NCBI GenBank assembly: GCA_964566925.1
Contig: CAZMIZ010000002.1
Span: forward strand, 72,647 to 136,646
Source: an uncultured Gammaproteobacteria bacterium
Lineage (GTDB): Bacteria; Patescibacteriota; Microgenomatia; PFEM01; DATLAM01
DNA length: 64,000 bases
Reading direction: 5' to 3'
This document shows, piece after piece, positions 11,226 to 60,667 of this stretch. The notes below the pieces were generated by a model that saw nothing but the letters and a program-made list of their open reading frames with translations, did not search any database and had not been told where the DNA came from. Each line of letters begins with the position of its first letter. The first letter of the stretch is position 1. Both the position numbers and the translations under genes were made by a program.

Positions 11226-11226
11226 T

Positions 11227-11506: not shown

Positions 11507-11513
11507 TTAAAGT

Positions 11514-11588: not shown

Positions 11589-11593
11589 GCTTA

Positions 11594-11702: not shown

Positions 11703-11708
11703 TGGTTG

Positions 11709-11782: not shown

Positions 11783-11800
11783 ATTTTAGCAAAAATTAGG

Positions 11801-11888: not shown

Positions 11889-11894
11889 TCGAAG

Positions 11895-13624: not shown

Positions 13625-13715
13625 CAGCCAATTTTACCATACTAGTAGTAATAATTGATCATCGCTGAATAGACAAAGTGAGAATAAATTTTAGGGTGCT
13701 ATAATAATAGGCCAA

Positions 13716-14384: not shown

Positions 14385-14397
14385 AAAAGTTTTGATT

Positions 14398-37354: not shown

Positions 37355-37427
37355 GGCCCCGTCGTCTAGTGGCCTAGGACATCAGGTTTTCATCCTGAAA
37401 ACAGGGGTTCGATTCCCCTCGGGGTCA
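37355..37427 (+). tRNA. tRNA-Glu (anticodon TTC)
   Basis: GGCCCCGTCGTCTAGTGGCCTAGGACATCAGGTTTTCATCCTGAAAACAGGGGTTCGATTCCCCTCGGGGTCA. Anticodon stem TCAGG/CCTGA encloses loop TTTTCAT. The 3' 46 nt are overlapped on the opposite strand by the end of the recombinase ORF. Confidence 0.8.
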
Positions 37428-43025: not shown

Positions 43026-44060
43026 TTATTTTTCTTTTAACTGGTAGTAACTGGCTTTCCCTTTTCCCTTTCTTTCGATCAACCCCAAGTCAATCAGTTT
43101 TTTGAAATCCAGGTTTCTGGTCGCCCTGGCCCGGTCAGTCAGTCCGGCATAATCGCGATCGGAGATATAACCCTTTTGGCTGATGAATTCTAAAATCCGT
43201 TGATGGTAAGGCTTCAGTTCTGTTTTGGGGCTGACCGAAGTTTCGGGCAGGATTTTTTTCACCCGCAAGAGTTCGTCGATGATCCCGTCCGTAAAGTATT
43301 CCAGCCAGTCGGTAAAATCAATGGCCTTAACCAGGTCATAATAATTGCCCAGCACCCCAATCTTCTTAAAGTAGTTGGTTACGTTTCGGTTATAGTAATT
43401 CTCGAAACTGAAAAGGTTAAAAGTATCAAGGCCCATGTCTGCTAAAAGAACTTTGGTGGCCAACCTGGCCGTCCGGCCGTTGCCGTCCATAAAGGGATGA
43501 ATAATCACCAACTGCTTATGAAAGATACCGGCGATGATCAGGGGGTCAACCAAACCTTTATTTTTGACCACAAATTTAATCAGTCCGTCCAGCAATTGGT
43601 CAAGGTCCTGGTGATCGGGTGGCCAATAGACGGTTTTACCGGTCCGGGGATCATTGACAAAAACAGGTTCCCGTCTTAATTTTCCCAGTTGATCGCGGGG
43701 AGCTAACTGATTAAGGATTTGCCGGTGAACAGACAAAATCAGCTGAAGATCAAAGGCAATCCGGCCGCTTTTCAGTTTTTTATTTAATTCCTTCAGAGCT
43801 TGATTGTAATTAATGATCTCCTGCTCGCTCCTTCTTAAATTTTTAGGCTGGGTTTTAAGAATCTGCTTGACGTCGGTCAGCGGCAAGGGGTTGCCTTCAA
43901 TGCTGGTTGAAGCAAAGGCAGAAGTTTCCCGAGCCTTTCTTTCCAGCTCATAAAGAACCACCTTCGGAAATCTTCTATTATTCAGGTCCAAAACAATCGA
44001 ATTTATCTGTTTGATCTTGGCCAGAAGCCTGTCGGTAATGGTATATTGAGGCTCAAACAT
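43026..44060 (-). CDS. Fic/Doc family protein (AMPylator-type)
   Basis: Canonical Fic motif HPFMDGNGRTARL (HPFx[D/E]GNGR) at about residue 190. Confidence 0.8.
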   Translation of the reverse strand: MFEPQYTITDRLLAKIKQINSIVLDLNNRRFPKVVLYELERKARETSAFASTSIEGNPLPLTDVKQILKTQPKNLRRSEQEIINYNQALKELNKKLKSGRIAFDLQLILSVHRQILNQLAPRDQLGKLRREPVFVNDPRTGKTVYWPPDHQDLDQLLDGLIKFVVKNKGLVDPLIIAGIFHKQLVIIHPFMDGNGRTARLATKVLLADMGLDTFNLFSFENYYNRNVTNYFKKIGVLGNYYDLVKAIDFTDWLEYFTDGIIDELLRVKKILPETSVSPKTELKPYHQRILEFISQKGYISDRDYAGLTDRARATRNLDFKKLIDLGLIERKGKGKASYYQLKEK

Positions 44061-46352: not shown

Positions 46353-47162
46353 TTATCGCTTCAGATATCTATTAAACCAATTCTCGATTAGAAGATAAAC
46401 GCCTCGTCTTTTAGGTTTGAGATCATGCCCAGCTCCTTTTTCAATATCTGTTTCTTTACCTCCTTTTTTGGCATAGTAAAAGGACCACATTTCTGATATA
46501 GGAACCTTATCGTCTTTCTCGCCGTGAATAAACAATATTGGGCAAGAGATTTTCTTCATAGATGCCAATAAATCATATTGCTCTAAATCTTGCCAGAAAA
46601 TTGGCTTTACTCTGGTAATATTTCCACCTGATCGTTTTCGTGACGATATACCATTGGGGTTGAAATCCTCCTTAAATAGTTCTTTCATCAGTTCATGGGG
46701 ATGTGCGATTGAACCCATTAAAATAATGGCGTTAACATTTGGTTCTAGAGCAACGGTGACAGAAGTTCCAAAAGATTGGGCCAGTATGCCTATTTTATTT
46801 TTGTCGACTTTAGGATGCTTTCTAACAAAATCTAACATGATTCCGAGGTCTGACACGAGCTTTGATAATGAAGTTTCGCTGTAATCACCTTCACTATCTC
46901 CACATCCAGAAAAGTCAAATTTGAATACAAGAAACCCGGCAGATGATAGTTTGAGGGCAATATCAGTAAACATCCCCCCTTCGGTTCTCTCAACGCCAAA
47001 ACCGTGCACCAAAAGAACAGCTGGGTTTTTTTCTTGAGATCTCTCAGGAAAAGTTATATCACCATGTAAATATTCTCCTTTTTTGTTGTTTAATCCTACC
47101 AATTCTTCTTTTATTTCCAGTCTTTGATTATTCATATTTATTTTCGAAATTGGCTCGGCCAC
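46353..47162 (-). CDS. Alpha/beta-hydrolase fold protein
   Basis: HGFG oxyanion region LLVHGFGVERTEG. Nucleophile elbow GILAQSFGTSV (G-x-S-x-G). C-terminal His in KGAGHDL. Confidence 0.6.
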   Translation of the reverse strand: MAEPISKINMNNQRLEIKEELVGLNNKKGEYLHGDITFPERSQEKNPAVLLVHGFGVERTEGGMFTDIALKLSSAGFLVFKFDFSGCGDSEGDYSETSLSKLVSDLGIMLDFVRKHPKVDKNKIGILAQSFGTSVTVALEPNVNAIILMGSIAHPHELMKELFKEDFNPNGISSRKRSGGNITRVKPIFWQDLEQYDLLASMKKISCPILFIHGEKDDKVPISEMWSFYYAKKGGKETDIEKGAGHDLKPKRRGVYLLIENWFNRYLKR

Positions 47163-47494
47163 TGCCGATTCTGAAAAGCCCGGATGCGGTGTGTTAATCT
47201 CTCTCTTTCCTTTTTGAGATATTCAACTTGATTAGAAGTAAAACGTCCTGGGAATTTTTCACTATACGCAAGTTCCAGGTCTATTAAAATTCTACTCTCT
47301 CTATCAAAAGCCAAAGCCATCTTAAAAATGTCTGTTGGTTTAATTGGCTCTCCCGGGATCAACTCCTTGGCGTTAAACTTTTCTGACCGCTGATGAGCAA
47401 CCCGGAAATCTTTTAATATATTTTTGATTTTCTGATCAATTTTGTCGTTCACTTTCTGGTTTAGGAATGATGTTTTTAATATATTCATCGGCAA
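47138..47494 (-). CDS. Hypothetical protein (118 aa)
   Basis: Overlaps the upstream gene by 59 nt and the downstream gene by 25 nt, so it is likely co-transcribed. No motif. Confidence 0.35.
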   Translation of the reverse strand: MPMNILKTSFLNQKVNDKIDQKIKNILKDFRVAHQRSEKFNAKELIPGEPIKPTDIFKMALAFDRESRILIDLELAYSEKFPGRFTSNQVEYLKKERERLTHRIRAFQNRQWPSQFRK

Positions 47495-48830
47495 TATTAA
47501 TTATCTCGTCAAATGTCAAAATCTCAATGCTGTGTAAACTGTTTCTTAGCTTAGTAAAGTCTCTTTTAAGTTTTTCATTTTCTCCTATATGTGTTGTAAG
47601 CCTTCTTTCGGACGAAATTACAATAATTCCCCTTGGGTGATAGAGATTTTCTTCGTCTACGAAATTCGTGATTTTTTGCTGATCTTCTGGATTTTTAAAG
47701 CGTTCTTGTACAATTGCATCCATGTAATTTGTTGTCTGAACGATTGCCTTGCTCATCTCTGGCGAAAAATAGAAGTTCTGATGGCTGTTATCCCACATTA
47801 ACGCATTTTTAAGGTGTGTTTTAATTTCAATAACATCTAGGCCATTATAATGATTTATACCAATAAAGTCTGGATATTTCTTATCGCCTACCACGTCTTT
47901 TAATTCAACTTTGGGGAAGATTTTTTTATAAGTAAATATTAAATAAAGAAGATACTTTTCAAAATATTTTTGCCATACACTTTCTAATTGCCCGGCAGAT
48001 TCTATTTCCAAAGCCTGCGTTACTTGACGCCCAGATTTTGTTGATAAATTTGTGCTACCCAAAGACAATATTTTTCGCCCCAACGCGATAATATCTCGCA
48101 GCCTTTCTTTTATAAAATAATCATTGAGCACCTGTAAAAAACTATCTGATAAAACTTCATTTTTTAGAAGCAAGCGTAATAGATCTTCTACAGATGTCAG
48201 ATCGTCCCGATCAAGATATTTGGTAAAATCGCTCTTTGCTTTTTTTGTTTTAAGATAAAGACGGTCTACTAGGAATTTAAACTCGCCGGCCTCAATGTAT
48301 GTTGTTCTTCTTCTGACGTTTTTGTTATATTTACGAGATTTAATATTTGAAAGATAATTCTCTGTAGAGTTTCTATAAGATAATCCTTTTTCAAAAACGT
48401 TTTTAGCATCAGTCATGATGTCTGAAAATAAATTTAAGGGAATTATCAAGGTATCTTTATAAAATCTCATTGCTTTTGAGTTTTTGCTCAGTTTGGTTCT
48501 CTTAACACCTTTGTTTAACGGATTGACTATTTTTTTAAACTGCCTTTCATTTACCAACTTATAACTTCCTGTACGTCGGAACTGTAGAAATTTTCTAATA
48601 TCAAAGTCTTTTGGAAAAACTATCTCGGAAAATCTTTCTCTCTGGCCATATTCTCTTTTCTCAGGATTGTAATACCAAAAACTAAGGTGGAATTCGCCGC
48701 GCTTGATGCTTAGGATTTCTCCCTTAGGGCACTTAAGTTGTTGTCTCCCTTCATTTAAAACTAAATCTGGCCAGCGTGCACCAATTAAAGTATCTGAAAT
48801 ATATTTTGCTAATGTTTTCCTTCTTGGCAT
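47436..48830 (-). CDS. Putative PD-(D/E)xK nuclease, Shedu (DUF4263)-like C-terminal domain
   Basis: C-terminal KYPDFIGINHYNGLDVIEIKTHLK gives D...(D)-x-I-E-I-K, i.e. a PD-(D/E)xK core. It is followed by RGIIVISSERR. The N-terminal 250 aa are basic with no motif. The family call rests on motif memory only. Confidence 0.35.
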   Translation of the reverse strand: MPRRKTLAKYISDTLIGARWPDLVLNEGRQQLKCPKGEILSIKRGEFHLSFWYYNPEKREYGQRERFSEIVFPKDFDIRKFLQFRRTGSYKLVNERQFKKIVNPLNKGVKRTKLSKNSKAMRFYKDTLIIPLNLFSDIMTDAKNVFEKGLSYRNSTENYLSNIKSRKYNKNVRRRTTYIEAGEFKFLVDRLYLKTKKAKSDFTKYLDRDDLTSVEDLLRLLLKNEVLSDSFLQVLNDYFIKERLRDIIALGRKILSLGSTNLSTKSGRQVTQALEIESAGQLESVWQKYFEKYLLYLIFTYKKIFPKVELKDVVGDKKYPDFIGINHYNGLDVIEIKTHLKNALMWDNSHQNFYFSPEMSKAIVQTTNYMDAIVQERFKNPEDQQKITNFVDEENLYHPRGIIVISSERRLTTHIGENEKLKRDFTKLRNSLHSIEILTFDEIINIADEYIKNIIPKPESERQN

Positions 48831-48976: not shown

Positions 48977-49909
48977 TCAAATATTCTTTGGATAACTTTG
49001 GGAGAATTTGGATAAAAGTCTGCTGATTAAGTCATTCTTCAAATCATTTTCTCGATAGTATTTATCCGCCTCGACCATTTGTTCATAAGCTGAATCCTTG
49101 TATTCCAGCATTTCATTCTCCGGATCATCAAGAATGTTTTTGTGCCAGTTGGTAACCACCTCATTAAAATCAATCTCCGAGCCTCTCTCGCCAATAGCGT
49201 CAAGTTGCTGGCCAACAGCTTCGTCGTAAGCTCCGGAGGCATAGTTCTCCGGATCGGTGATAATCTCGTAGAAGTCGATTATATTATTAGAGTAGAGGAT
49301 AACATAATCTCTTAATCCTTCATCTATTATCTTGTCTTGATAGAGACCCTCTGCCTGGGCGATGATGCTTGGGGCAACGTCATAAGCGTCGGTCATGTCT
49401 TGGAAGCGCTCCTCATCGCTTTTCTCCTCGCCCAAGCCGGCAAACTTGGCATTGGCGGTATCAAGCTGCTGGACCAAGCGAAAACCCTGATGCTCCTTTT
49501 TCTTTAATTCAATGAAAACTGCCAGCGATTTTTGATAGTTCTCAAAAGCAGGTTTTTTCAATTCCTGATATTTTTTGTATCTGGCCGGCAAAAAGGGGAT
49601 CTTATCCTGCCGGTTAACGAAAACCTGATAAGAATCAACTAATTTTTGGGCAAACTTCAAACCTTCCTCAATATCTTCCGGGATTTTATTCATCTTCTCC
49701 TGGTCAGAGATGAAAGCGCTTTCCTCTCCGGTCCTGATGGCAATCAAGTAGTCAATTTGATCCCGGACTTCTTCGGTGAGCAGATAGTGGGCCCTTGCCC
49801 GCCACTCAAACTCGTTGTAAACAAAAGCAGGGATGTTTTGATTGAAGATAACTACTAAAGCAACGACTAAAACCGCCAGACCCAGAAGAATCTTCTTTAG
49901 AATTTTCAC
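48977..49909 (-). CDS. N-terminally membrane-anchored hypothetical protein (310 aa), last gene of the Type IIG-led operon
   Basis: TM LLGLAVLVVALVVIF. Acidic C-terminal region. Start overlaps the stop of the Cas4-like gene by 4 nt. Confidence 0.4.
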   Translation of the reverse strand: MKILKKILLGLAVLVVALVVIFNQNIPAFVYNEFEWRARAHYLLTEEVRDQIDYLIAIRTGEESAFISDQEKMNKIPEDIEEGLKFAQKLVDSYQVFVNRQDKIPFLPARYKKYQELKKPAFENYQKSLAVFIELKKKEHQGFRLVQQLDTANAKFAGLGEEKSDEERFQDMTDAYDVAPSIIAQAEGLYQDKIIDEGLRDYVILYSNNIIDFYEIITDPENYASGAYDEAVGQQLDAIGERGSEIDFNEVVTNWHKNILDDPENEMLEYKDSAYEQMVEADKYYRENDLKNDLISRLLSKFSQSYPKNI

Positions 49910-50664
49910 CTTTCTTCTTTGCTAATCAATCTTCTATAAGCACAATATTCACAGTTCTCACTGGCAGAGGGGATTTTGTCGGAATCCAGACATTTCTTCA
50001 TGGCAAAAATAGCTGGCTCTACCCAGGAATCATCACCATTGTGAGCAATAATTTGCAACTCAAACTCTAACCGGGCGTCAAACTTGGGTCTATTTTTACC
50101 GGCATTGGCAAAAATAAAATAGCCGGTGTTGGAGACTTTAAAACCGCTCTGCTTGAAAATCCATTGATAAACCTCCATCTGTTTTTTATAGTTTTGTTTG
50201 TATTCATCCTCAAGCGAAATCTCCTGGGAAGTGCTAGTGGCTTTGTAGTCAACAATCAACAACTCTTCTTTTTTGTTTATCCAGAGATCATCCACGGCTC
50301 CAAAGACTAAAAAATTAGTCCCTTCATGAAGATACTGCTTGCCAACAAAATTATTCCGCCACTCCTCAATATCCGGATGAGAAAAGGGCACGGCGTCAAT
50401 CTGGTACTGCTTCATTAATTGATGCTGTTCACCATTTTTACGAAGAAGATCAAACTCGTTTTTCAAAAGCTGGTCCACGGCTGAGTTTAAAGCCCATCCT
50501 GGCATGCTGGGACGGCCCAAGCCTAAACGGCGGTCAAGATAAAAACAACGCGGACATTCCAAGAATAAATCAATCTTGCTCCGACTGATTTTAAAAGGCA
50601 CCTTCTGTCCAGGTTGATAAAGACCTCTCTGGCGTTTTTGGTATTTGTTCATATTAAGATACAA
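49906..50664 (-). CDS. Cas4/RecB-like PD-(D/E)xK nuclease with Fe-S cysteine cluster (PDDEXK_1-like)
   Basis: N-terminal CPRCFY. Motif II GAVDDLW. Motif III LIVDYKAT (D-x-K). QxxxY appears in KQMEVYQ. C-terminal C-x12-C-x2-C (CLDSDKIPSASENCEYC). Confidence 0.55.
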   Translation of the reverse strand: MYLNMNKYQKRQRGLYQPGQKVPFKISRSKIDLFLECPRCFYLDRRLGLGRPSMPGWALNSAVDQLLKNEFDLLRKNGEQHQLMKQYQIDAVPFSHPDIEEWRNNFVGKQYLHEGTNFLVFGAVDDLWINKKEELLIVDYKATSTSQEISLEDEYKQNYKKQMEVYQWIFKQSGFKVSNTGYFIFANAGKNRPKFDARLEFELQIIAHNGDDSWVEPAIFAMKKCLDSDKIPSASENCEYCAYRRLISKEER

Positions 50665-50673
50665 AGTTTACTT

Positions 50674-53600
50674 TTACTGTCTCAACCATTCTTGTTTATC
50701 GTCTAAGAAATTAGGATTACGTTCAATAAGTTTATTAAAAATTCTTGCCACTTGTTTGTTGCTCTTAGGTAGCTTTTTGAGGGGACCTATCGCGTCTGCG
50801 AGATCATTTGCTATTAAAACTTCTATTGGATAATCAGCTAAAAACTCAAACCATTTTAAATATTCCGTGGTTCCTTTGTGCTTAGCAACCGCAAGTAAAA
50901 TCTTTCCGTTATAGAAAAACGGCCACCAGTAAACGTTGGGAACATTTTCTTTGTCTTTTGCCGCTTCAATTAAAAACGGCTTTTCAACTTCAAGGCATTT
51001 CGTCCAAAGTTTAAAACAATCTTCAAAATAAGAATCGATGTAATCTTCAATAAATCTGTAAATATTCTCAAAAACCCGGTGCTCGTATTTATTTATTAAA
51101 ATTTTAAAGTAAGAAACCGCTAAGGCAACCGCTTCATCAACTGTCATCTGACTTTTTTCTTTAGGAGTCTTGCTTATTTCGTCCGTTAACCTATTGAATT
51201 GCCAAGACAAATCTGACTTGACTTCAGACGAACCATTTTTCAGCAAATCCACCAAGAGGGCTTTGAATGGTTTACTATCAAACTTTGTGATATCACCCCA
51301 AGGCCAGTTTTTAAAAGACTTACTCCTAAATTCGGCAAAAAATATGTATAAAGGCGATGCTTCCTGCATCACTTCATCAAAGCCAGTGTTTTTGAAAGTT
51401 TTAAGGACAAGCATTGCCCGTTTTTCATCCAGATTTCTCATGTATGTAAAAACCGTCGCCAAGTGCTTCATTACTACCTTAAGTTTGTGATTTTCTTTAT
51501 CCTTAAGCATAGCAAAAGCGATGCCTTCAATTTGTTCAGCTACTCTCATTGGCAAAAACCTTTCCTTGCTGTCTTCTGATAAAAACGTATGTCTATTTTT
51601 TACGAGTTCTATAAGAGGAATGCATGCCTGCACGCGTACATAGTAATTTGGGTCTTTTGATAGCTGTTTAACTAGAGGTAGTATTTCGGCAATATAATCT
51701 CGGCCATAGCGGATACAGAATTTTTGTAAAACCCAGGCGCAATAACCACGAACCGTGTTAAGTGTCGGATTATCATCACCCTCTATGACTTTTTGATGAA
51801 AATTAAAATCACCTTTTGGATCATCTGGATAGTTTTTTAATATCGGGTCACTGTCGTTGATAAATATCTTGACTAGCCAAAGTGCTTCATCAAAGTAGCG
51901 GAGTTTGGCCAATTTTTCGGCAAATTGTACAAGAGACTCACGAGAGTATCTGTGGCTGAAACGCCGCTCTATCCTTTTGATATCACCTAATCCTTCTAGT
52001 GTTGGTTTCAAGAACTCCTTATATACCTTAAGTAGAATATCCTTTTTCTCATCAGGGATGTTATAAAGCCCGCCACTAATTATTATTTGTTGATTGACAG
52101 TAAGTGTTTTCGCTTTATCTATCACTTTTAGTAATCCAATACCGACCGCAGGCTTTTTTTCAATAACCCTGGCAACTGCCTTGGCCACATCATAAGCGTC
52201 AAAGGAGACCAATTTGTTTTTAAAATAATCTGTTGACAGATAAGACTCCAACAGCCCAACAGCCTTATCAAAATTATTTTCTAAAAGCAGTAAAATCCCA
52301 TCTGTTGGGCCATAAGAACCAATTACATGACGGGTATTATATTTTGGGTTTTGAATCCAACTCATGATTACATCTCCTGCTTTTTTGGCAAGTTTAGACG
52401 AAGGTTTTGAAGCAATATTAAAAACTATTTGTTCTACAAATACATTTGTTGGCAGATTATCGAATTCCTTAAGACTTGCATCCACTAATTTCCATTTCTG
52501 TTCATCTGTAAATTCATCGTTGTTTATTCCTTGGAAAATTAAATCATTTTTCCAGGGGATACCTTTACGCATCTTCACAAAAGTCTTCAAAATTTCGAAA
52601 ATTTCTTCACTGAACTCACCGCCTTTATATTCCTCGAGGAGAATAGGTAGTGTGGCGCGGTTCAAGAAATCAGGGTTTTTTCTACTCACGTCTTTAAGAG
52701 AAAGGCATTTCTTTACAATAAAATCCAGCCCCTTCTCTTTATCTGCCTCGTATAGTTTTTTTAGCGATGGGGTTAATATCTGGGTTACGAAGTAGCGGTC
52801 AGTAATTGAGAATAAACTTCCTGATTGTGAAATTCCGCTACCCATATGCTCCCAACCTTCAAACTTAAGTTTTTTACCGAATTTTCTGTAGAATTTGTCA
52901 TATTGTTCAACGCACCTTTTAGTAAACCAGGGTATTCGTATTTCGGGATTACTTGAAACATACTTTCCTAAGATTTTAAATATGCTGGGTGGGGTGTAAT
53001 GCCAAAATCTACCGTCATCCGCAACCAAATTAAAATTGCTAACGATATAGTCGATAACATCATGTTTAAGTCTTTTATTTTTGCTTTTGTTGTAGAGTTC
53101 CTCCAGTAATTCGGCTGTCTTTTCCCTTTCCCATGTATCATCTCTTCTTCTTTTTACGTAAAGAAATTTGTCAATGGAATGTTTATAGACTTGCTTTATT
53201 ACCTGGAATACTTGCCCTTCGAGCGCCCTGTTTAATTCCAATATTTTCCCACTCAATTTCACTATGTCGTATTTAATAAACTCTTCCCTAAAATAGTTGG
53301 TTGCTTCGCCGATTATACTAAGAATAAAGTTAAGCGCGAATTCTTGATTTTCCTTATTATGGATATTATTTTCAAATATTTTAAAAAGCTCTATGGAGAA
53401 AGCACTTTGGTAGGTAGCCTTCCAAAGATTTAGCCAATCAGATAATTTTAAATTTTTTTCGCCTTCCAATTTTTGTAGAGCGAAGTGGTGAATTGAAGGA
53501 TTTGCATAAAGCTTAACCAGTTCGTTATTAATATTTAGCTTTTTACTCCTTGATTTTATCGATTTGATTATTTTTCTAACTTCTTTCTCTTCGATTTGCT

Positions 53601-54258
53601 TAACTTTCTCGTAGTCATAGCCATCATCTTCTAATATTTGGGCTTTTTTACTTTCAAGTAATTTCAAAAAGTCATCTCTATTGAGAGTTTCACCTTTTTG
53701 AGATCCCTGATAGACCCTGTCTTCGACCAGGCTTTTGGTAATTTCTTGTAACCGATGTTCAGGTACCCAGAAAGCCTCAGGATAACTCAAAACTTTCGCC
53801 ATGAGAATTTCAACCGCTTGGCGGTTTATATCCTGGCTTACTTCCCAAAATCTAAGTTGAGGTAGTAACTTTAGGTGTTTATCTTCAAATTTATGTTTTT
53901 TACTTTTAAGTTTCTTTTTAATATCTTTTTCAAAATATTTGAAATTTTCAATCAATCCTTTTGCCTCTTTGTTTACCTTTTTACAGACTATTAGAATTTC
54001 ATCTTGATCTGCCACTTGGGCGTGTTTAATCACTTTATCAAGAATCTTTCTTATATCTGCTAGGTTTATATTTCCCGCTTTTGACTCGCAGATTATTTTT
54101 CTTCCGTCTTCAAAAACAAGGTGAAAATCCTCAAGCTTTTTGCCCTCAAAACCTATATACCTGAAATCTTTACGAGTAACGTACTGTAGAAACAATGACA
54201 TAGCCGCCCAATTTTGAGCATTTATACCTTTTTGTAGCCGTTGTCCTTGAGTTGTCAT
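50674..54258 (-). CDS. Giant hypothetical protein (1194 aa) with N-terminal restriction-endonuclease-like motif and long helical-repeat body
   Basis: The N-terminal 70 aa contain LEDFHLVFEDGRKIICESKAG, fitting D-x13-E-x-K. No Walker A, HKD or phosphatase motif was found in the rest, which is mostly predicted alpha-repeat. Start overlaps the AlbA_2 gene stop by 4 nt. Confidence 0.45.
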   Translation of the reverse strand: MTTQGQRLQKGINAQNWAAMSLFLQYVTRKDFRYIGFEGKKLEDFHLVFEDGRKIICESKAGNINLADIRKILDKVIKHAQVADQDEILIVCKKVNKEAKGLIENFKYFEKDIKKKLKSKKHKFEDKHLKLLPQLRFWEVSQDINRQAVEILMAKVLSYPEAFWVPEHRLQEITKSLVEDRVYQGSQKGETLNRDDFLKLLESKKAQILEDDGYDYEKVKQIEEKEVRKIIKSIKSRSKKLNINNELVKLYANPSIHHFALQKLEGEKNLKLSDWLNLWKATYQSAFSIELFKIFENNIHNKENQEFALNFILSIIGEATNYFREEFIKYDIVKLSGKILELNRALEGQVFQVIKQVYKHSIDKFLYVKRRRDDTWEREKTAELLEELYNKSKNKRLKHDVIDYIVSNFNLVADDGRFWHYTPPSIFKILGKYVSSNPEIRIPWFTKRCVEQYDKFYRKFGKKLKFEGWEHMGSGISQSGSLFSITDRYFVTQILTPSLKKLYEADKEKGLDFIVKKCLSLKDVSRKNPDFLNRATLPILLEEYKGGEFSEEIFEILKTFVKMRKGIPWKNDLIFQGINNDEFTDEQKWKLVDASLKEFDNLPTNVFVEQIVFNIASKPSSKLAKKAGDVIMSWIQNPKYNTRHVIGSYGPTDGILLLLENNFDKAVGLLESYLSTDYFKNKLVSFDAYDVAKAVARVIEKKPAVGIGLLKVIDKAKTLTVNQQIIISGGLYNIPDEKKDILLKVYKEFLKPTLEGLGDIKRIERRFSHRYSRESLVQFAEKLAKLRYFDEALWLVKIFINDSDPILKNYPDDPKGDFNFHQKVIEGDDNPTLNTVRGYCAWVLQKFCIRYGRDYIAEILPLVKQLSKDPNYYVRVQACIPLIELVKNRHTFLSEDSKERFLPMRVAEQIEGIAFAMLKDKENHKLKVVMKHLATVFTYMRNLDEKRAMLVLKTFKNTGFDEVMQEASPLYIFFAEFRSKSFKNWPWGDITKFDSKPFKALLVDLLKNGSSEVKSDLSWQFNRLTDEISKTPKEKSQMTVDEAVALAVSYFKILINKYEHRVFENIYRFIEDYIDSYFEDCFKLWTKCLEVEKPFLIEAAKDKENVPNVYWWPFFYNGKILLAVAKHKGTTEYLKWFEFLADYPIEVLIANDLADAIGPLKKLPKSNKQVARIFNKLIERNPNFLDDKQEWLRQ

Positions 54259-55061
54259 AAGTTATGAATATCTTTAAAATTTTTAATAAAATCCTCGACT
54301 AGTGTTTCAAGATCATTGTGTAAACTATTTAGTCTTTCGTTATCGGTCGCACTAACAGATTCTCCGTAAGTCGCTCCTGCGCTAAAAATATTTCTAATAG
54401 CCTCATATAAACGGATAACTTTTCTCAATTTATCAAGTAGGTCGTTGAAGTCTTCACTATCCGCAAGTCTGTTTTCCAGATAACCCCTCAGCTGCAGAAA
54501 ATACATAAAATCGATGGCGTCTGGATTTAACTTGCATTGTTTTATCTTGTCTAACTCGTTCTCTAATTGATAGATGTGACTGGGGGAAAATTTATCTACT
54601 AAAAACAATTTTCTTAAAATGCTACCATCTTCTATTGGATCGCAAGTACCATTTCCTCTAACATAAACCTTCTTATCAGTTATATGCGGTCTATCAAAAT
54701 AAAGGGAAGGGTATATATACAAAAGATAAACATATTTGCTTTTTTGGGGCAACTTAATTTCATTTATATCCCAACTTTTGATAGGGATTGGGGGACCTAT
54801 ACCATTTTTAATTTTTCTGTTTACTTTTGTTTTCAGTTCTGTATCCCTATCTATACCTACTATTTTTATGTCATTATTTATTCCGTGCAAAATAAATCCA
54901 CCATTAGTGTTTGCAAAAGAACAAAATATCCTCCGTATTCTCTCCGTGTCTCCCAAAGAAATTCCTTTGAAGTCGTGATACCAGCCCTCCAAAACATTTG
55001 CACCATTTACAAATGATTTGATTTCACTAAACCCCCACGTTTTAACCTGGTCTATATTCAT
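54255..55061 (-). CDS. AlbA_2 (Schlafen-like, PF04326-type) domain protein
   Basis: RIRRIFCSFANTNGGFILHGINNDIKIVGI matches the AlbA_2 core a-f-A-N-t-x-G-G-x-l-x-x-G-V-x-D-x-x-x-i-v-G. 268 aa. Confidence 0.5.
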   Translation of the reverse strand: MNIDQVKTWGFSEIKSFVNGANVLEGWYHDFKGISLGDTERIRRIFCSFANTNGGFILHGINNDIKIVGIDRDTELKTKVNRKIKNGIGPPIPIKSWDINEIKLPQKSKYVYLLYIYPSLYFDRPHITDKKVYVRGNGTCDPIEDGSILRKLFLVDKFSPSHIYQLENELDKIKQCKLNPDAIDFMYFLQLRGYLENRLADSEDFNDLLDKLRKVIRLYEAIRNIFSAGATYGESVSATDNERLNSLHNDLETLVEDFIKNFKDIHNL

Positions 55062-57772
55062 TTTTTACTTTTTCCCTCAACTAGTTCTGTCTCCTCCGGC
55101 GTGAGGTTGTAGAGTTTGTAAATTAGTTGGTCGGTTTCATCCTGAAGTTTTGCAATTTCACTTCTCAATCTAGTCCATTTATCTGAATTTTGTGTGGTCT
55201 TTAATAATTCCTCATTAATTTTGATCATTCTATTCACAAGTTTAAAGAGACTTTTGTTTTTTGTATTGTATTTAGGAAGTGGTAAATTCCTTACATCGTT
55301 GACCAAAATTTTAGGGAATAACCCCTTTTTAGCTTTAGGAGATTTATTTAAATTATACCAACCCATTAGTGTAGAGTTCACAATACCCAGTAATACCTTC
55401 AGGGAATAATTGCTATTTTTCTTTTTTATAACATTAATAATAGAGGGTGTATTATAATACTCTTCTTTTGTCCAAGAACAAATTAGATTTACACCGGTAA
55501 TTTCTCGTACAAGAACCCTCTCCTCTCTAAAAAATTTTGGTTCTCTCGGTGCTGCAAGCCAATTTCCATAGCTTATCCATGACTTTCCATTCCACTTTAT
55601 AGAATAGCGCTTAACGTCACCACCCTTTAATTCCTTTTTGTAGGTAGCATCCTTTTTATGATCGGCATGCCAAATTCTATTTTTAATTGTATATTCATCA
55701 TGTCCTCGATATTTATCATAAGGAATTAAACCTTGAGAAACTTCAAAATAGTCGCTAACTCTAGCTCCTACTGATTCAATTTTCTTTAAAATGCGATCCT
55801 TTTCTGCAGAGTAATCAAATAGAGCTAGCCAATTATCTAACTCTTTCTCTAAAACCTCTTTTCCGAAGGCATTAAATAATTCAAACAATTGCTTAGTCCT
55901 GTCATACTTGAAGAAAGTGACATTCTTGCCGCTTTCGAACCTATCTTTTTTCGCTATTACAATACAGTTTCTAACAGAAGCGTCTTTGAAAGTCTGATCC
56001 TCTGTCAAATCTATAATTGAAATTATTTTGAAATTTTTAAGCAACTTCTCTCTGAAACCTTTTCCATAGAATGTCGATAAAAAGGTGTTGGGTATTATAT
56101 AAGATAAGCAACCTCCTTGCTTCAAAAGAGACAATCCCCTAGAAATGAAATAGATATAGCTTTCATAATCAGGAACCATAGGGTAGACATTACTTAAGTA
56201 TGACTTATCTTCTTGGGTAAAACTTGCCCCATAGGGAGGATTTCCTATGATTACGTCAAACCCTTCTTGTTTAAATACCTCTGGAAATTCTTCTTTCCAG
56301 TTGAAGGGTTTTTTCTCCTGCCAGTTTTTTCCAAAATACTTTTTGAGTTTCTTTTCGGTGCCAGAAATAAGCGAGTTGCCAACTTTAGTGTTGTCGGAAA
56401 GTAACGGTAGTTTATGGTTTGGTTCAAGCGCTTTTAGCAGAAGATTTAAGCGGGCGATTTCAATGGCTTGAGAATCAAGGTCAACACCATAAATATTATT
56501 CTTTAAGATATTGTATTTTCTGAAAGCTGCATGCGGTCCAGATTTCTCTTGAGCTTTTTCTTCGGCTAGTTTCTCATCCAGCAAAGCAAAGGCCTTAATA
56601 AGAAAGGAGCCGCTACCACAAGCAGGGTCCAGAATTTTGATATTCTCAATTTCTTTTAATGACTTTTCTTTTAAAGCAACACCAAGCGTATTTTGAACAA
56701 TATAATCAACGATATGAGCCGGTGTATAGTAAATTCCTTGTTTCTTCCTTTTAGCCCCATTCACTAATCCTTTTCCTTGAACAAAACCGAGATACTGTTC
56801 ATAAATGGAACCTAAAACATCAGCGTCGATGGCGGCAAAATTATATTTAACTCCTCTTTCTTTATCCGCATAAAGATCATTAATGATTTGCTCAAAAGGA
56901 GTCCCTTCGGTGTCGAGCTTCTCACAAAGATGCTCCAAAAACAGATTGCTATTATATTTTCTGTCAAAATCTTTAAAGATTGGCTTTAAAGCCTGCATGA
57001 AGTTATCGGGTTTTCGATTATGGGTAATCCACTTTCGAAGAGCAGGCCAAAGTATTTGGGGTTCAAGTTTACGATCTTCACAAGTCCGAATGAAGATAAA
57101 TCTATCCAAAACTCTTTGAACCGCTTCATCAACATCGGATTCATCAACTTCGGGATTATATCTCTTGAAGTATTTTCTTAAAAGCTCTCTCCATTCGAGG
57201 AGATCAGCCGCCAGTTTTTCACTAACTTTAAGCCTTTTAGCTTTGATGCCCCACTTCTCAGCTTGTTTATCAAGCTCACCTTTCTCAATGCTTTCCCTGG
57301 AGAGAAACCAAAGGTCATCCAGGCGAGTAAGGAATTTATCATAAGCAAATTCTAAATTTGGTTTTGGGGTGTCCACTAACCATTCTGAATTAAAAAGCTT
57401 TAAGCCTTTGAAATCGGTTAAAACTACCCAAGGAATACCTTTGTTCCAGCCATAGGTGACTGCCTGCTTTGCCCATTCAACTTTATCAAGGTCAACTTTT
57501 AGGGATTTTGCTTCAAGGAGAAATTGGGGAATGTTGTTAAGACGAAAAGAATAATCAACTTTTCCCTTAACAGCAACTTCTTCTTCAACTACCTCTCGGT
57601 CAGTAAATTCGTTGTAGACATCCCAACCTAAGGCTTGAAAGAATGGCTCAATGAAAACTCTTCGAGTATCTGCCTCATCATATCTTCTTAACTGTTTTGC
57701 CTTTTTTACTCTTTCATATTTTTCAATGAGCTTTTTGATTTCCTTTTTAGCCTGTTCTCTAGAAGTCGCCAT
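55058..57772 (-). CDS. Type IIG restriction-modification enzyme (fused PD-ExK endonuclease + gamma-class N6-adenine methyltransferase + target-recognition domain)
   Basis: N-terminal nuclease VDYSFRL...LLEAKSL (D...EAK). MTase motif I ILDPACGSGSFL. Motif IV IIGNPPYGASF. About 300 aa of C-terminal target-recognition domain. 904 aa total. Confidence 0.7.
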   Translation of the reverse strand: MATSREQAKKEIKKLIEKYERVKKAKQLRRYDEADTRRVFIEPFFQALGWDVYNEFTDREVVEEEVAVKGKVDYSFRLNNIPQFLLEAKSLKVDLDKVEWAKQAVTYGWNKGIPWVVLTDFKGLKLFNSEWLVDTPKPNLEFAYDKFLTRLDDLWFLSRESIEKGELDKQAEKWGIKAKRLKVSEKLAADLLEWRELLRKYFKRYNPEVDESDVDEAVQRVLDRFIFIRTCEDRKLEPQILWPALRKWITHNRKPDNFMQALKPIFKDFDRKYNSNLFLEHLCEKLDTEGTPFEQIINDLYADKERGVKYNFAAIDADVLGSIYEQYLGFVQGKGLVNGAKRKKQGIYYTPAHIVDYIVQNTLGVALKEKSLKEIENIKILDPACGSGSFLIKAFALLDEKLAEEKAQEKSGPHAAFRKYNILKNNIYGVDLDSQAIEIARLNLLLKALEPNHKLPLLSDNTKVGNSLISGTEKKLKKYFGKNWQEKKPFNWKEEFPEVFKQEGFDVIIGNPPYGASFTQEDKSYLSNVYPMVPDYESYIYFISRGLSLLKQGGCLSYIIPNTFLSTFYGKGFREKLLKNFKIISIIDLTEDQTFKDASVRNCIVIAKKDRFESGKNVTFFKYDRTKQLFELFNAFGKEVLEKELDNWLALFDYSAEKDRILKKIESVGARVSDYFEVSQGLIPYDKYRGHDEYTIKNRIWHADHKKDATYKKELKGGDVKRYSIKWNGKSWISYGNWLAAPREPKFFREERVLVREITGVNLICSWTKEEYYNTPSIINVIKKKNSNYSLKVLLGIVNSTLMGWYNLNKSPKAKKGLFPKILVNDVRNLPLPKYNTKNKSLFKLVNRMIKINEELLKTTQNSDKWTRLRSEIAKLQDETDQLIYKLYNLTPEETELVEGKSKK

Positions 57773-57871
57773 TTGGCTTTAATTTTACCACAATACCCCT
57801 CTCAACTAAATAGAATTTGACTTTTACTTTACAATTTGCTATAAGCTAGTTAGTTGAAAGTCAGCGTTTGG

Positions 57872-57926: not shown

Positions 57927-58256
57927 GTGATGAGAATCTTGCTGACGCTGCAATCTTTTGTCTTAACGGCTTTAATTTTTGCTGCCCAAGTTCAGGCCCA
58001 AGCTGACGACGTTTCCAAAGTCCAAAACTTCATGACCAACATTATTCAGATCATGGTCACTCTGGCCGGAGTTCTGGCCGCCCTTTTCTTTGTCTGGGGC
58101 GGGGTCGGCTATATTACCAGTACAGGCAACCCCGAGAATTTGGAAAAATCAAAAAAGACGATTTTTTACTCGGCTATCGGCTTGGCCGTTACCCTGGGAG
58201 CCTATGTCCTGGTCAATATTGTCACCCAGACGGCGCAGAGTGCTTTTGGCCAATAA
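57927..58256 (+). CDS. TrbC/VirB2-family pilin precursor
   Basis: Signal peptide plus two hydrophobic helices. IMVTLAGVLAALFFVWGGVGYITSTGNPENLEKSKKTI is the typical VirB2/TrbC layout. A strong SD (AAGGAGGTGAG) precedes it. Confidence 0.6.
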   Translation: MMRILLTLQSFVLTALIFAAQVQAQADDVSKVQNFMTNIIQIMVTLAGVLAALFFVWGGVGYITSTGNPENLEKSKKTIFYSAIGLAVTLGAYVLVNIVTQTAQSAFGQ

Positions 58257-58272
58257 TTAACGACAAAAAACA

Positions 58273-59559
58273 ATGGTTGTCCTAGCAGTTTTTTTAACTG
58301 CCTTAGTCTTCCTTCTCAATCCTCCTTTGGCCTTCGCCCTTGAACAATATCCCGAAATCCAATCTTTCACCGGCGACCTGATCGCCAACCTTTCCATTCT
58401 GGCTTCGGTTTTCGTCCTCTTCTTCCTCATCCGCGGCGGCTATTTGTATCTCACCTCCAGCGGCAATCCGGAGGCCCTGGAAGACGCCAAAATAACCATC
58501 AGGAATGCCCTCATCGGCTTGGTTTTAATTCTTTCGGCCAGTACTTTCTCTTCAATCCTAACGACTTCCTTCACCACCCCTTCGCCAGGCACCGAGACCA
58601 GCCAGATCGAACTGGCGCCATTGGAAACGGTCGAACCCGAAGACGGTCTCACCCAGGTCTTGACCGAAGCGATTGCCGGCTTTTTAAGGAACATCATCCA
58701 GAGCGCCACCAAGCCCTTGACCGACAGCGTCATTTCCTTTTTAACCACCACGCCTTTGGTGGCCACCAATCGGTCCATCTTCAATTTTTGGCTGATCATT
58801 CTGGGAATCACCGATTCGCTTTTTGTCTTGGTGATTATCCTCCTCGGCTTTCAAGTGATGAGCGCCACCACTTTCGGTTTCGAAGAGGTGAAGCTGAAAA
58901 AACTACTCCCTCGAATTGGCCTGGCTTTCCTTTTGGCCAACGTTTCCATTTTTATGGTCGACTGGGTGCTGCGGTGCAACAATGCCTTGGTTGCCGCCGT
59001 TCTCAATGCCACCGGCGGCTTGAACCAGGCCTGGATTGAGAACGCCTTTAACCCGCCGGTGATGACCATGGAGAGCGTCCTGGTGATTACCCTGATTTTT
59101 GGCGTCCTCTTTATTATCATCACCGTCGTCCTGCTCCTTTTTTATATCAGCCGTTTAATCATTATTGCCTTGGGGGCGGTCCTTTCGCCTTTAATCTTTA
59201 TGCTTTGGGCTATTCCCAGGCTGGCCGATTTTTCCGAAATTGCCATCAAAAGCTATCTGACGACGATTTTTTCCGTTTTTATCCATGTGGTGGTCATCCA
59301 GCTGGCGGCCTCATTCTTAACCCTGCCAGGCGAGTCGGGAGGCTCGGGCCTGATGGCCGTCCTCATCGGCATCGGCTTGATGTTTACCTTGATTAAAACC
59401 CAATCCGTCGTTTATCAATTGGTTTTTTACAACACCGGCCGGGCGGTCTTTAAAAAGGTGGGCGGCCAAATCGTCAACGTTCTTCAGGCCAAGCAGACCG
59501 AAGAAGCGGCTCTTGGCGAAGCCCAGGTTAAAACGCCGAGAAAGGTAGTCAACGCATGA
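58273..59559 (+). CDS. VirB6/TrbL-like polytopic membrane protein with N-terminal pilin-like domain
   Basis: N-terminal LASVFVLFFLIRGGYLYLTSSGNPEALEDAKITI is paralogous to the upstream pilin (GG-x-x-Y-x-T-S-x-G-N-P-E-x-L-E-x-x-K-x-T-I). At least six further TM helices follow, as in VirB6. Confidence 0.5.
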   Translation: MVVLAVFLTALVFLLNPPLAFALEQYPEIQSFTGDLIANLSILASVFVLFFLIRGGYLYLTSSGNPEALEDAKITIRNALIGLVLILSASTFSSILTTSFTTPSPGTETSQIELAPLETVEPEDGLTQVLTEAIAGFLRNIIQSATKPLTDSVISFLTTTPLVATNRSIFNFWLIILGITDSLFVLVIILLGFQVMSATTFGFEEVKLKKLLPRIGLAFLLANVSIFMVDWVLRCNNALVAAVLNATGGLNQAWIENAFNPPVMTMESVLVITLIFGVLFIIITVVLLLFYISRLIIIALGAVLSPLIFMLWAIPRLADFSEIAIKSYLTTIFSVFIHVVVIQLAASFLTLPGESGGSGLMAVLIGIGLMFTLIKTQSVVYQLVFYNTGRAVFKKVGGQIVNVLQAKQTEEAALGEAQVKTPRKVVNA

Positions 59560-60056
59560 AAACAAACCCCATTCCGGCTCAAGTAACCACGGTCGAGGAT
59601 AAAATCGCCGCCAATCTGAGCCTGACCCAGCTCATTCTCCTTTTGGCCCCGCTTTTTATCAGCGTCTTTGTTTTTGCCGTCCTGCCCGAGAGGATGTATT
59701 TTAGCCTTTATAAAATCATTCTTATAATTCTGTCTCTGATTATTTTCTTAACCCTGGCCATTAGGGTCAAGGAACGAATTGTTTTGACCTGGCTGATTCT
59801 GCTGGTCGCTTACTATTTAAGACCCCATCTTTTTCTCTTTGACAAAAATGATGATTACCTGCGAAAGGAAAAACACCCGCCGGACGACGAGATTGAAAAA
59901 ACCGCCAGTCGCCAACCAATTCCGGCCAAAAAAGAAAAAAAGAATCACTTATCAATTCTGAATCTGATTCAGCTGGAGAACCTGATGAACGCCAGAAATA
60001 CCAGAATGTCAATTAAATTCAGTCAAAAAAGGAGGCTCAGATTAAACCGCTTTTAA
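59556..60056 (+). CDS. Small two-TM membrane protein, VirB3/PrgI-like position
   Basis: Two TM helices (LILLLAPLFISVFVFAVL and IILIILSLIIFLTLAI). Start is coupled to the VirB6-like gene stop. The call rests on position and topology only. Confidence 0.3.
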   Translation: MKTNPIPAQVTTVEDKIAANLSLTQLILLLAPLFISVFVFAVLPERMYFSLYKIILIILSLIIFLTLAIRVKERIVLTWLILLVAYYLRPHLFLFDKNDDYLRKEKHPPDDEIEKTASRQPIPAKKEKKNHLSILNLIQLENLMNARNTRMSIKFSQKRRLRLNRF

Positions 60057-60112
60057 ATAATAAAGTCTCCTCCAGGAGACAAATTAAAATCAAGGAAGTC
60101 CGAGACGGGATT

Positions 60113-60667
60113 TTGGTTCTGCCGGAAAACAAATATCGGGTGGTGGTGGAAACCTCGGCGATTAACTTTGAACTTAAAAGTGAGGCCGAACAAGACGCTT
60201 TGATTGATAATTTCCAAAATTTCATCAATGCCCTGCCCTGCCCGATCCAGATTTTAATCCGGGTCCGCGAAGTGGAGATTGACCACTATCTCGAGGTTTT
60301 CAACAGCAGAAATAATCACGAAACCAGCAAGCTTTACCGCCAGCAAATCAAACACTACGGCCAGTTTGTCAAGAAATTGGTTAAGGGCAATAAAATCCTT
60401 TCCCGGCGCTTTTACCTGGTCATTCCCTACGAACCGGAGCCGGAAAAAAACGACTTTAATTTGATTAAGGAGCAAATCAATCTCAGCCTGGATATCATTG
60501 CCAAGGGCTTGGAGCGGCTGGGGATGAAAACCAGAAACCTCAACACCCTGGAAATTCTCGAACTTTTTTACAGTTTTTATAATCCCGGGGGCTCTAAAAC
60601 CCAGCCCATCAAGGAGAAAACTTATCAGCTTTTAGCAAAAAATAAAGATGTTATTCAAACTCCCTAA
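60113..60667 (+). CDS. virB4: VirB4/TraC-family ATPase, N-terminal domain (separate ORF, or 5' part of a frameshifted virB4)
   Basis: VVETSAINFELKSEAEQDALIDNFQNFINALPCPIQILIRV is the conserved VirB4 N-domain pattern. It ends at 60667, overlapping the next ORF by 20 nt in a different frame. Confidence 0.55.
   Translation: MVLPENKYRVVVETSAINFELKSEAEQDALIDNFQNFINALPCPIQILIRVREVEIDHYLEVFNSRNNHETSKLYRQQIKHYGQFVKKLVKGNKILSRRFYLVIPYEPEPEKNDFNLIKEQINLSLDIIAKGLERLGMKTRNLNTLEILELFYSFYNPGGSKTQPIKEKTYQLLAKNKDVIQTP

Follow-up and report, generated by a model that had tools for sequence, protein, structure and literature searches.

A candidate two-protein nuclease module carried behind restriction-modification genes in a swappable cassette of a Patescibacteria genome

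We have analysed a block of five minus-strand genes (g1 to g5, 48977-57772) in a 64,000-nt stretch of DNA, called the window below, from an uncultured Patescibacteria (Microgenomates-group) genome, an affiliation taken from the named best hits of its PEP synthase. A preliminary description, made from the letters alone, had taken the block for one composite defence system headed by a Type IIG restriction-modification (R-M) enzyme. Our results divide it into two evolutionary units. The genes g1, g2 and g3 form a cassette that is replaced by a non-homologous gene set in a sister genome, while g4 and g5 stay in place there. Within the cassette, g2 (a short prokaryotic Schlafen protein) and g3 (a member of an unnamed family with a nuclease module and a giant HEAT solenoid) are linked to each other in both directions, and such pairs recur behind R-M genes of several types. 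On balance, we favour the reading that g2-g3 serves as a second line of defence, i.e., as an abortive nuclease module that travels with R-M operons. The theme is a known one, both as R-M back-up effector and as nuclease-sensor fusion; the architecture of g3 is unusual, and its pairing rule appears to be new. The features concerned are as follows.

55058-57772, minus: g1, 904 aa, Type IIG restriction-modification enzyme
about 57173-57772, minus: predicted N-terminal PD-(D/E)xK nuclease of g1
55823-56824, minus: predicted gamma-class N6-adenine methyltransferase of g1, NPPY at residue 511
55277-55636, minus: predicted TaqI_C-type target-recognition domain of g1
54255-55061, minus: g2, 268 aa, short prokaryotic Schlafen (AlbA_2) protein
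54966-54989, minus: catalytic-type motif of g2, E25-GWYH-D30-F-K32 (Ex4DxK)
50674-54258, minus: g3, 1194 aa, unnamed family, N-terminal nuclease module and HEAT/ARM solenoid
53569-54258, minus: predicted nuclease module of g3, residues 1 to about 230, Cap4/HamA/LmuA-type PD-(D/E)xK
50677-53568, minus: predicted HEAT/ARM alpha-solenoid of g3, about 1,000 aa
52804-52863, minus: beta-hairpin insert of g3, residues 466-485, FEGWEHMGSGIS
49906-50652, minus: g4, solo-Cas4-like PDDEXK_1 nuclease, resident backbone gene (first listed as 49906-50664, 252 aa from TTG 50664; the start is likely ATG 50652)
48977-49909, minus: g5, 310 aa, N-terminal hydrophobic membrane anchor, coupled to g4 by GTGA, resident backbone gene
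50599-57804, minus: swappable cargo cassette, g1-g2-g3 with their own upstream region, 7.2 kb, delimited by blastn against contig L051
57773-57804, minus: upstream region of g1, specific to the cassette; TGGTAAAAT at 57790-57782, 9 nt before the ATG, is extended -10-like

All five open reading frames (ORFs) were found at every coordinate given earlier, and the domain calls for g1-g5 have been borne out by Pfam, PADLOC and NCBIfam profile searches together with motif reading. Some details of the layout had to be corrected. The ATGA overlaps hold for g1/g2 and g2/g3, while the overlap of g4 and g5 is GTGA. The 9-nt gap between g3 and g4 exists only with the TTG start of g4 and becomes 21 nt if ATG 50652 is used; the latter is probably the true start, since g4 homologs are 247-253 aa long and their alignment begins at residue 5. 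The GC content, given as about 32% for the whole block, was measured at 36.7% and is heterogeneous, with 35.5% in g1-g3 and 42.0% in g4-g5 (window: 41.3%). The block does lie in a mosaic accessory region, namely a conjugative-element-like region between type IV secretion system (T4SS) genes and a Shedu gene. Upstream of g1, TGGTAAAAT is a possible promoter that would give a leaderless or short-leader transcript, judging from its sequence; it has no -35 element and was not called by the promoter consensus scan, and the promoter and terminator consensus scans of the locus gave only background level.

The division into two units is seen most directly in L051, a Logan contig of a sister genome, which was found through a 91%-identical g5 homolog. 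In the blastn comparison, the stretches common to L051 and the window are 86-88% identical at nucleotide level. An identity of 88% extends over the T4SS pilin, TrbL and PrgI genes (60292-57805) and ends 33 nt upstream of the start of g1; there is no homology across g1-g2-g3 (57804-50599), and 88% identity resumes at 50598, which is 18 codons into g4, and continues through g4 and g5 to 48910. In place of g1-g3, L051 has a 6.8-kb set consisting of a 279-aa ORF, a C5 methylase, Vsr, a LexA-like gene, DUF3644, a UvrD-like helicase and small ORFs. As L051 holds another gene set between the same flanks, g1-g3 is a swappable cassette in a hotspot, and the GC step from 35.5% to 42.0% agrees with this split. 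A further contig, L052, likewise keeps g4-g5 without g1-g3. No direct or inverted repeats were found at the cassette borders beyond chance AT-rich matches, which makes homologous recombination in the conserved flanks likelier than site-specific insertion.

The linkage between g2 and g3 has been found from both sides. Most g3 loci have a single small gene upstream, spaced -35 to +5 nt from g3. When a metagenome scan was seeded with g2-like proteins instead, 13 full-length relatives were obtained, and a g3 homolog follows 0-6 nt past the stop codon in 11/11 of the g2-like loci with downstream DNA. The conserved unit is thus a small variable gene followed by g3, in which g3 is constant and the partner exchangeable. 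The AlbA_2 gene, earlier regarded as a fixed component, is one of at least six interchangeable partner classes, which were derived by clustering and phmmer:

AlbA_2/Schlafen (g2-like): 10 loci
C2, about 300 aa, weak LmuA match: 6 loci
C5, about 200 aa, no known function assigned: 6 loci
small Cap4-like, Cap4_nuclease-positive: 5 loci
C9, about 365 aa, no known function assigned: 4 loci
C14, about 380 aa, no known function assigned: 2 loci

Two of these classes resemble defence effector nucleases of LmuA, HamA and SAVED-PDDEXK type, and the small Cap4-like class and C2 are weakly related to each other by hhalign. In a neighbour-joining tree, g3 proteins with different partner classes lie intermingled, and sister pairs differ in their partner (AlbA_2 in L027 vs C9 in L030; C2 in L019 vs Cap4-like in L018). 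Such scattering over the tree indicates repeated partner exchange.

Other genes were also seen around g3. An unannotated family of about 365 aa, C6, with a weak SseK/NleB-like match (9.5e-4), is found downstream of g3 in six loci and may be an optional third component of the module. It follows g3 directly in four of them (L010 3753-4841, L023 2609-3709, L027 13667-14773 and L033 13556-14674), lies one gene further in L030 (14295-15374) and about 1.7 kb off in L019 (15369-16463). In addition, L001 encodes a PD-T7-5-like protein (PADLOC 9e-22; 13662-14579) whose gene overlaps the g3 end, and a homolog of it is located within the Type I operon of L027 (5137-6042).

As the preliminary description noted, g3 is a giant helical-repeat protein with an N-terminal D-x13-ExK motif. 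Across 25 diverse homologs, residues E38, D44, E58 and K60 do not vary (motif D44-x13-E58-x-K60). The AlphaFold2 (AF2) model, which is confident with a predicted local distance difference test (pLDDT) score of 86.2, has an alpha-beta-beta-beta-alpha-beta core in residues 1 to about 160, and the remainder is an all-alpha solenoid. The top structural matches of the N-terminus are the nuclease folds of Cap4, HamA, LmuA and Avs3; there are also weak matches to MspJI and a Type ISP enzyme. According to the model, the N-terminus therefore appears to be a Cap4-like PD-(D/E)xK fold with the conserved catalytic D...ExK. The solenoid holds several near-invariant motifs, and the net charge of g3 is +29. 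The solenoid is interrupted by a strongly conserved, non-helical insert made up of FEGWEHMGSGIS and a beta-hairpin, a candidate ligand-binding or catalytic site.

That g3 is undescribed has also been supported. No family was found for it in Pfam, PADLOC v2, NCBIfam or PHROGs, where only one sub-threshold HEAT repeat appeared, and full-length and N-terminal profiles searched against PDB sequences returned only HEAT repeat and designed alpha-Rep proteins. An exact-match look-up gave no record. A lead to "AbiJ-NTD4 fused to HEAT repeats" (PMC3710099) was not confirmed, as Pfam AbiJ_NTD is unmatched by g3, and in full-text searches of the literature neither the family nor its pairing rule was found described. 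We detected 173 homologs; almost all of them span the full length (1,170-1,260 aa), and none has a name. The family is present in 40 of the 185,579 species genomes scanned, mostly of Patescibacteria, with some Deltaproteobacteria, Margulisiibacteriota, Elusimicrobia and Woesearchaeota and one Heimdallarchaeaceae-labelled contig. It is absent from 72,556 PLSDB plasmids, 50,697 INPHARED phages and the IMG/VR contigs, so it is not a typical phage- or plasmid-borne gene of cultured collections.

For g2, the SLFN_AlbA_2 domain (residues 29-143) is well above the Pfam threshold (E 1.3e-16, 61.6 bits vs the 25.3 cut-off). E25 and K32 are invariant in 10/10 of the homologs that are partners of g3, and position 30 is D or E. 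Ex4(E/D)xK is the catalytic motif of the prokaryotic Schlafen (pSlfn) tRNases, which cleave tRNA and cause abortive infection once a phage protein is recognised by their fused sensor domain (10.1101/2025.07.24.666596). By domain and motif g2 resembles these pSlfns (10.1101/2025.07.24.666596) and Cash, the CRISPR-associated Schlafen (PMC13462974). The difference lies in the sensor: described pSlfns carry a fused one (Ig-like, Csx15 or others), while in g2 there is just a short helical tail at the C-terminus, about 125 aa long, in which no Pfam family match and no fused sensor domain were found. The presumed sensor of g2 would then come in trans from g3.

The first gene, g1, combines predicted nuclease, methyltransferase and target-recognition domains in one polypeptide and is by its sequence a complete Type IIG enzyme. 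It matches Eco57I (1.4e-40), N6_Mtase (1.8e-29) and TaqI_C (6.7e-18) in Pfam and REase_MTase_IIG in PADLOC (2.3e-118, residues 7-613). The matches of its N-terminal nuclease to HSDR_N and MmeI_N are weak and under the Pfam cut-offs. Its motifs are D73-x13-E87-A-K89, LDPACGSG at 381 and GNPPYG (NPPY) at residue 511.

Across the related loci, the pair is directly preceded by same-strand R-M genes, with gaps of no more than 57 nt, in at least 16 cases, and the position is taken by various types:

Type IIG: window, L004, L011, L012, L018, L039
PLD-SNF2 helicase with Type IIG: L013, L045
Type I HsdM/S/R: L007, L019, L022, L027, L029, L044
Type III Mod+Res: L016, L025, L036

Type IIG is thus not the specific head of the operon, as had been thought. 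The claim that extra genes are tied to the R-M gene holds for g2-g3 and fails for g4-g5, and the tie is to R-M in general. A protein panel query, whose panel was derived from upstream genes and is thereby biased towards them, gave an R-M match within 5 kb upstream in 15/33 of the loci with at least 3 kb of upstream DNA, all on the same strand, and downstream in 1/32 loci (Fisher p = 8e-5). Due to this origin of the panel, unbiased Pfam scans were added. The 87 upstream ORFs of the panel-negative loci included six N6_N4 methylases and one C5 methylase; in 126 downstream ORFs, there was no methylase among the 25 families listed of 104, and one Type ISP enzyme was found. In addition, R-M genes are present in 6/6 of the newly obtained g2-seeded loci whose upstream DNA reaches at least 4 kb, i.e., Type I in three and PLD-SNF2 with IIG, an IIG-like enzyme and Type III in one each.

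The two remaining genes behave as residents of the region. The protein g4 matches PDDEXK_1 (PF12705; E 8.6e-13, 49.2 bits vs the cut-off of 22), with the motif D125..D139-Y-K141 and cysteines at 37, 40, 225, 238 and 241. It is under the Cas4 cut-offs (Cas_Cas4 20.9 vs 22.7 bits; TIGR00372 29.2 vs 65), and cas1/cas2 were found neither in its flanks nor in the PADLOC search. Its family has at least 6,433 homologs in Patescibacteria and archaea, many labelled PD-(D/E)XK or Cas4 at source; the best 120 of these show 68-91% identity and lengths of 241-270 aa. The contexts of the family include housekeeping genes (NUDIX, BipA, P-type ATPase) at one end and defence genes (GmrSD, a DrmE_C-containing gene) at the other. 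Solo-Cas4/PDDEXK_1 proteins are a described class in the candidate phyla radiation (CPR) and DPANN, in the latter sometimes beside R-M genes (Hudaiberdiev et al. 2017, PMC5704561). With its length of about 250 aa, its cysteines, the lack of cas1/cas2, the small-genome lineages in which such proteins abound and its occasional R-M neighbours, g4 is, judged by its sequence, an ordinary member of this class (PMC5704561), without any distinguishing feature.

No family was found for g5 in Pfam, PADLOC, NCBIfam or PHROGs. Its own family is small, with 53 representatives and a distant homolog, P0247, at a contig edge. The 91%-identical g5 homolog follows g4 in both L051 and L052 with the same overlap, and no g5 homolog was seen in any of the about 55 g3/g2 loci examined. 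In the two closest g3 relatives (65% and 62% identity), g4/g5 were not seen, with the contig of the 65% relative ending about 200 nt past g3. Of the ~32 loci with downstream DNA, only 3 have g4 after g3, and none has g5 there. The preliminary description had said that a lack of conservation of the downstream genes with the R-M gene would point to chance juxtaposition; this is what we see for g4 and g5, while g2-g3 stay R-M-linked. The two resident genes may still be co-transcribed with the cassette by read-through.

Some observations on g4-like genes are worth recording. L004 (1-14953), the Heimdallarchaeaceae-labelled contig, carries an Eco57I-type methylase, a partner of class C5, g3 and a g4 that is 80% identical to that of the window, and behind them a cluster of GTP cyclohydrolase I, QueD, QueE-like, QueC, carbamoyltransferase, GT2 and SHMT genes. 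The contig suggests mis-binning or recent inter-domain transfer, and the Que cluster is possibly a 7-deazaguanine DNA-modification module. Two unrelated contigs (L048 6001-8030 and L069 5001-7019) each have a g4-like PDDEXK_1 gene with a Trypsin_2 protease gene next in line, one pair being preceded by GmrSD_N and the other lying near a DrmE_C-containing gene; this may be another recurrent solo-Cas4-like pairing.

Based on the above analyses, we can propose how the locus would work. Unit 1 (57804-50599) is a horizontally exchanged, predicted defence cassette in a conjugative-element hotspot of this Patescibacteria genome. In it, g1 is predicted to be a self-sufficient Type IIG enzyme, and g2 and g3 form a separate two-protein module translationally coupled to it. 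We suppose that the g3 nuclease is a promiscuous dsDNA endonuclease of Cap4/HamA/LmuA type and that the solenoid serves as autoinhibitory scaffold and sensor, because such nucleases await sensors and giant helical repeats do the sensing in DSR2 and Avs. The partner would be a plug-in second effector, i.e., a sensor-less Schlafen-type tRNase here and a Cap4-like DNase or one of several proteins of other classes elsewhere. Expressed from the 3' end of R-M operons, the pair would act as an abortive-infection-type back-up: when an invader gets past restriction, g3 would be activated and DNA degraded, and the partner effector would be released or activated. This second-line role is suggested because the placement at the 3' end of R-M genes matches the theme of back-up effectors (PMC3710099, PMC12839542). 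Unit 2 (g4 and g5) is resident backbone that flanks the hotspot and lies outside the defence module.

On the other hand, several points weigh against this reading. The defence function is deduced from gene context and protein fold. Neither an R-M nor a methylase gene stands directly upstream in about half of the g3 loci, and in L005 and L033 g3 lacks a partner gene; the module may hence be autonomous, with an R-M link that is maybe only defence-island co-selection. The panel behind the upstream count was biased, as described above. Neither all-against-all hhalign nor inspection of the tails has revealed a docking domain or C-terminal motif common to the six partner classes, so a physical g2-g3 complex is hypothetical. 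For the nuclease module, the link to Cap4 is weak at sequence level: PF14130 (Cap4) is unmatched by the N-termini of 16 family members even at E <= 10, and the hhalign comparison with the Cap4_nuclease-positive partner family gives a probability of 56% (E 1e-4) with the motifs in register. Conservation of the solenoid is even and fairly strong, with majority-residue fractions of 0.41-0.70 in stretches of 50 aa, whereas the receptors of Avs- or DSR2-type sensors evolve fast. Finally, the occurrence of g4 after g3 in three loci (window, L004, L035) is more than chance for a single gene and may reflect a loose functional tie; its most economical explanation is a conserved g4 that flanks a defence hotspot.

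Among the other explanations, the one that we take most seriously, while still doubting it, is that g2-g3 works autonomously and that its proximity to R-M genes comes from defence-island clustering and hitch-hiking on mobile R-M cassettes. The many loci without a detected upstream R-M or methylase gene fit this well, as does the presence of other defence neighbours of g3 (PD-T7-5-like, RhuM, DUF3644 and Shedu genes), and with R-M types so interchangeable, specific protein-protein contacts to the R-M enzyme are improbable. Yet the association is directional and operonic, being on the same strand, closely spaced and nearly confined to the upstream side, and the module often overlaps the R-M gene before it, by -4 to -20 nt, with no space left for a promoter of its own. 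A closer functional bond is imagined if g2-g3 is a generic guard of R-M systems, in which the solenoid senses a failure common to any R-M type and fires the Cap4-type DNase and the plug-in effector. The signal could be a DNA-mimic anti-restriction protein, unmethylated DNA of an invader left unprocessed, or an R-M intermediate that has stalled or been cleaved. We regard this as a tentative and rather unlikely idea; if true, it would define an NTPase-free two-effector abortive class that is mechanistically coupled to Type I, IIG and III alike. Quite improbable, in our judgement, is that g3 is a new restriction endonuclease, either Type IV-like or reading the mark of the neighbouring methyltransferase, whose solenoid scans DNA and whose partner tunes specificity. 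DNA methyltransferases are indeed its commonest upstream neighbours, including stand-alone N6_N4 and ParB-fused ones without an obvious cognate nuclease; the even conservation of the solenoid and the charge of +29 fit a conserved ligand such as DNA; and there are the weak structural matches to MspJI and a Type ISP enzyme. Type IV enzymes, moreover, classically lie beside Type I loci, as in the immigration control region of E. coli. But the best structural matches of g3 (Cap4, HamA, LmuA) are non-specific effector nucleases, no modified-base-binding domain (SRA, YTH, PUA-like) was recognised in g3 by Pfam or in the AF2 model, a conserved g3 would be unable to follow linked methylases of so many specificities, and RNase partners such as Schlafen are ill-suited to a role in DNA specificity.

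Two explanations have very little probability left. One is that g2-g3 is an addiction or stabilisation module for mobile cargo, or a DNA-repair accessory, rather than an immune system. It would suit a cassette in a conjugative-element hotspot, the serine recombinases frequent near g3 loci, and two predicted nucleases that are potentially toxic; against it, the g3 family is absent from the plasmid, phage and IMG/VR sets, no pattern of an antitoxin-like small partner is seen, the neighbours are overwhelmingly defence genes, and Schlafen and Cap4-like proteins are established immune effectors. The other is the single composite system of the preliminary description, headed by the Type IIG enzyme and with g4 and g5 as integral parts. 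The five genes are co-directional, with overlaps or gaps of no more than 21 nt and no terminator-like site between them, g4 directly follows g3 in L004 and L035 as well, and solo-Cas4 beside R-M genes is known in DPANN (PMC5704561). This is largely refuted by synteny, as L051 and L052 hold g4-g5 without g1-g3. Furthermore, GC differs between the parts, the closest g3 relatives show no g4/g5, g5 is in 0 of ~55 loci, and the g4 family, about 40-fold bigger than that of g3, occurs beside NUDIX, BipA and ATPase genes. For annotation, the lesson is that translational coupling and co-directionality over-called a five-gene system, which one sister contig was able to split.

The cassette sits in a larger mobile region. 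Downstream of the two resident genes, L051 homology resumes through the relaxase, coupling-protein and serine-recombinase genes to 37406, beside the tRNA. As a whole, the region 37355-64000 looks like an integrative conjugative element with defence cassettes in its two hotspots, and its main features are listed below.

37355-37427, plus: tRNA, overlapped by the 3' end of the serine recombinase gene
37382-39091, minus: serine recombinase gene
39413-42073: TraD/VirD4-like coupling protein
42219-42998: relaxase-like gene
57927-62408: T4SS pilin, TrbL, PrgI and VirB4-like genes

A second variable segment, 48909-44814, contains the Shedu gene and four others and is non-homologous in L051, whose counterpart encodes a DUF5677 protein, a 2-hydroxyacid dehydrogenase and three unannotated ORFs. 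The Shedu protein (464 aa, SduA_C 2.5e-19; 47436-48830, minus) begins 146 nt downstream of g5, with a promoter-like site at 48900-48872. Downstream of it lies an alpha/beta hydrolase gene (46353-47162, minus), which has a homolog two genes past g3 in L011 (14052-14852); similar hydrolases are near g4 homologs in L049 and L050. A Fic/DOC-family gene (4.8e-17; 43026-44060, minus) is absent from the syntenic part of L051 (gap between L051 15236 and 15287). Far from the cassette, a dense array of 13 tRNA genes within about 1 kb (10963-11978, minus) coincides with the highest GC content in the window, 50%.

If the module works as we propose, it would have an unusual architecture, in which a Cap4/HamA-type nuclease and a HEAT solenoid of about 1,000 residues are combined with a plug-in effector and without any nucleoside triphosphatase (NTPase), and it would be a system largely of uncultured lineages, which are poorly covered by defence catalogues. 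It offers one of the cleanest operonic links to three R-M types, making the coupling of effector and restriction (the PrrC paradigm) testable in a new family, and it gives the sensor-less prokaryotic Schlafen a candidate trans-acting sensor in g3.

We have also compared the locus with the systems described so far. The earlier statement that it is neither BREX, DISARM nor CRISPR adaptation has stood, as PADLOC finds no BrxC, PglZ, Drm or Cas1/2, and a Walker A motif was found in none of g1-g5. For BREX, g2-g5 have no PglZ or BrxC match in PADLOC, Pfam or NCBIfam, and g1 reaches 114 bits against the 500-bit cut-off of PglX. For DISARM, DrmA, DrmB (DUF1998), DrmC (PLD) and DrmD were not detected in the block by Pfam or PADLOC; some related loci have a PLD-SNF2 protein upstream of the methylase, which the window locus lacks. 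A CRISPR adaptation module was rejected on the sub-threshold Cas4 scores of g4 and the flanks free of cas1/cas2.

In CBASS, Hachiman, Lamassu and Avs, nucleases of the g3 type serve as promiscuous DNases that are silent until a sensor fires, and in Avs, built as effector-STAND-TPR, the helical-repeat region binds a phage protein. None of these systems accommodates the locus, since no SAVED, CD-NTase, HamB helicase, LmuB SMC or STAND NTPase was found in g3 or its neighbours. Compared with Cap4 (CBASS), HamA (Hachiman), LmuA (Lamassu) and Avs3, the g3 nuclease is instead covalently fused to a HEAT solenoid. DSR2, a SIR2 effector with a HEAT-like sensor whose helical region binds a phage protein (PMC11263360), shares with Avs and g3 a layout in which a single polypeptide has the effector enzyme at its N-terminus and a very large region of helical repeats towards its C-terminus. 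Unlike these, g3 has a nuclease rather than SIR2 as its predicted effector, is NTPase-free, has an evenly conserved solenoid, and usually comes with an operonic partner and an R-M neighbour.

Previous studies have revealed nuclease effectors that are co-transcribed with R-M genes and read as a second line (PrrC/RloC, Abi-like; Anantharaman et al. 2013, PMC3710099). The recurrent co-directional position in or behind R-M genes places g2-g3 with these R-M-embedded back-up effectors: like PrrC/RloC (PMC3710099), it is an extra nuclease in the R-M operon, and the R-M partner is interchangeable in the wider class. PrrC/RloC are ABC-ATPase-HEPN RNases, while g3 has neither NTPase nor HEPN and shows a PD-(D/E)xK domain with a giant HEAT solenoid. 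Back-up effectors, including Schlafen, HEPN, PIN and restriction endonucleases, are also embedded in BREX and BREX-related loci (PMC12839542). The Schlafens among them likewise stand beside a PglX/Type IIG-like methyltransferase and are presumed to be a suicidal back-up, yet they are fused to a histidine-kinase-like ATPase and a wHTH domain (PMC12839542), whereas g2 is a stand-alone protein of 268 aa that is strictly paired with g3.

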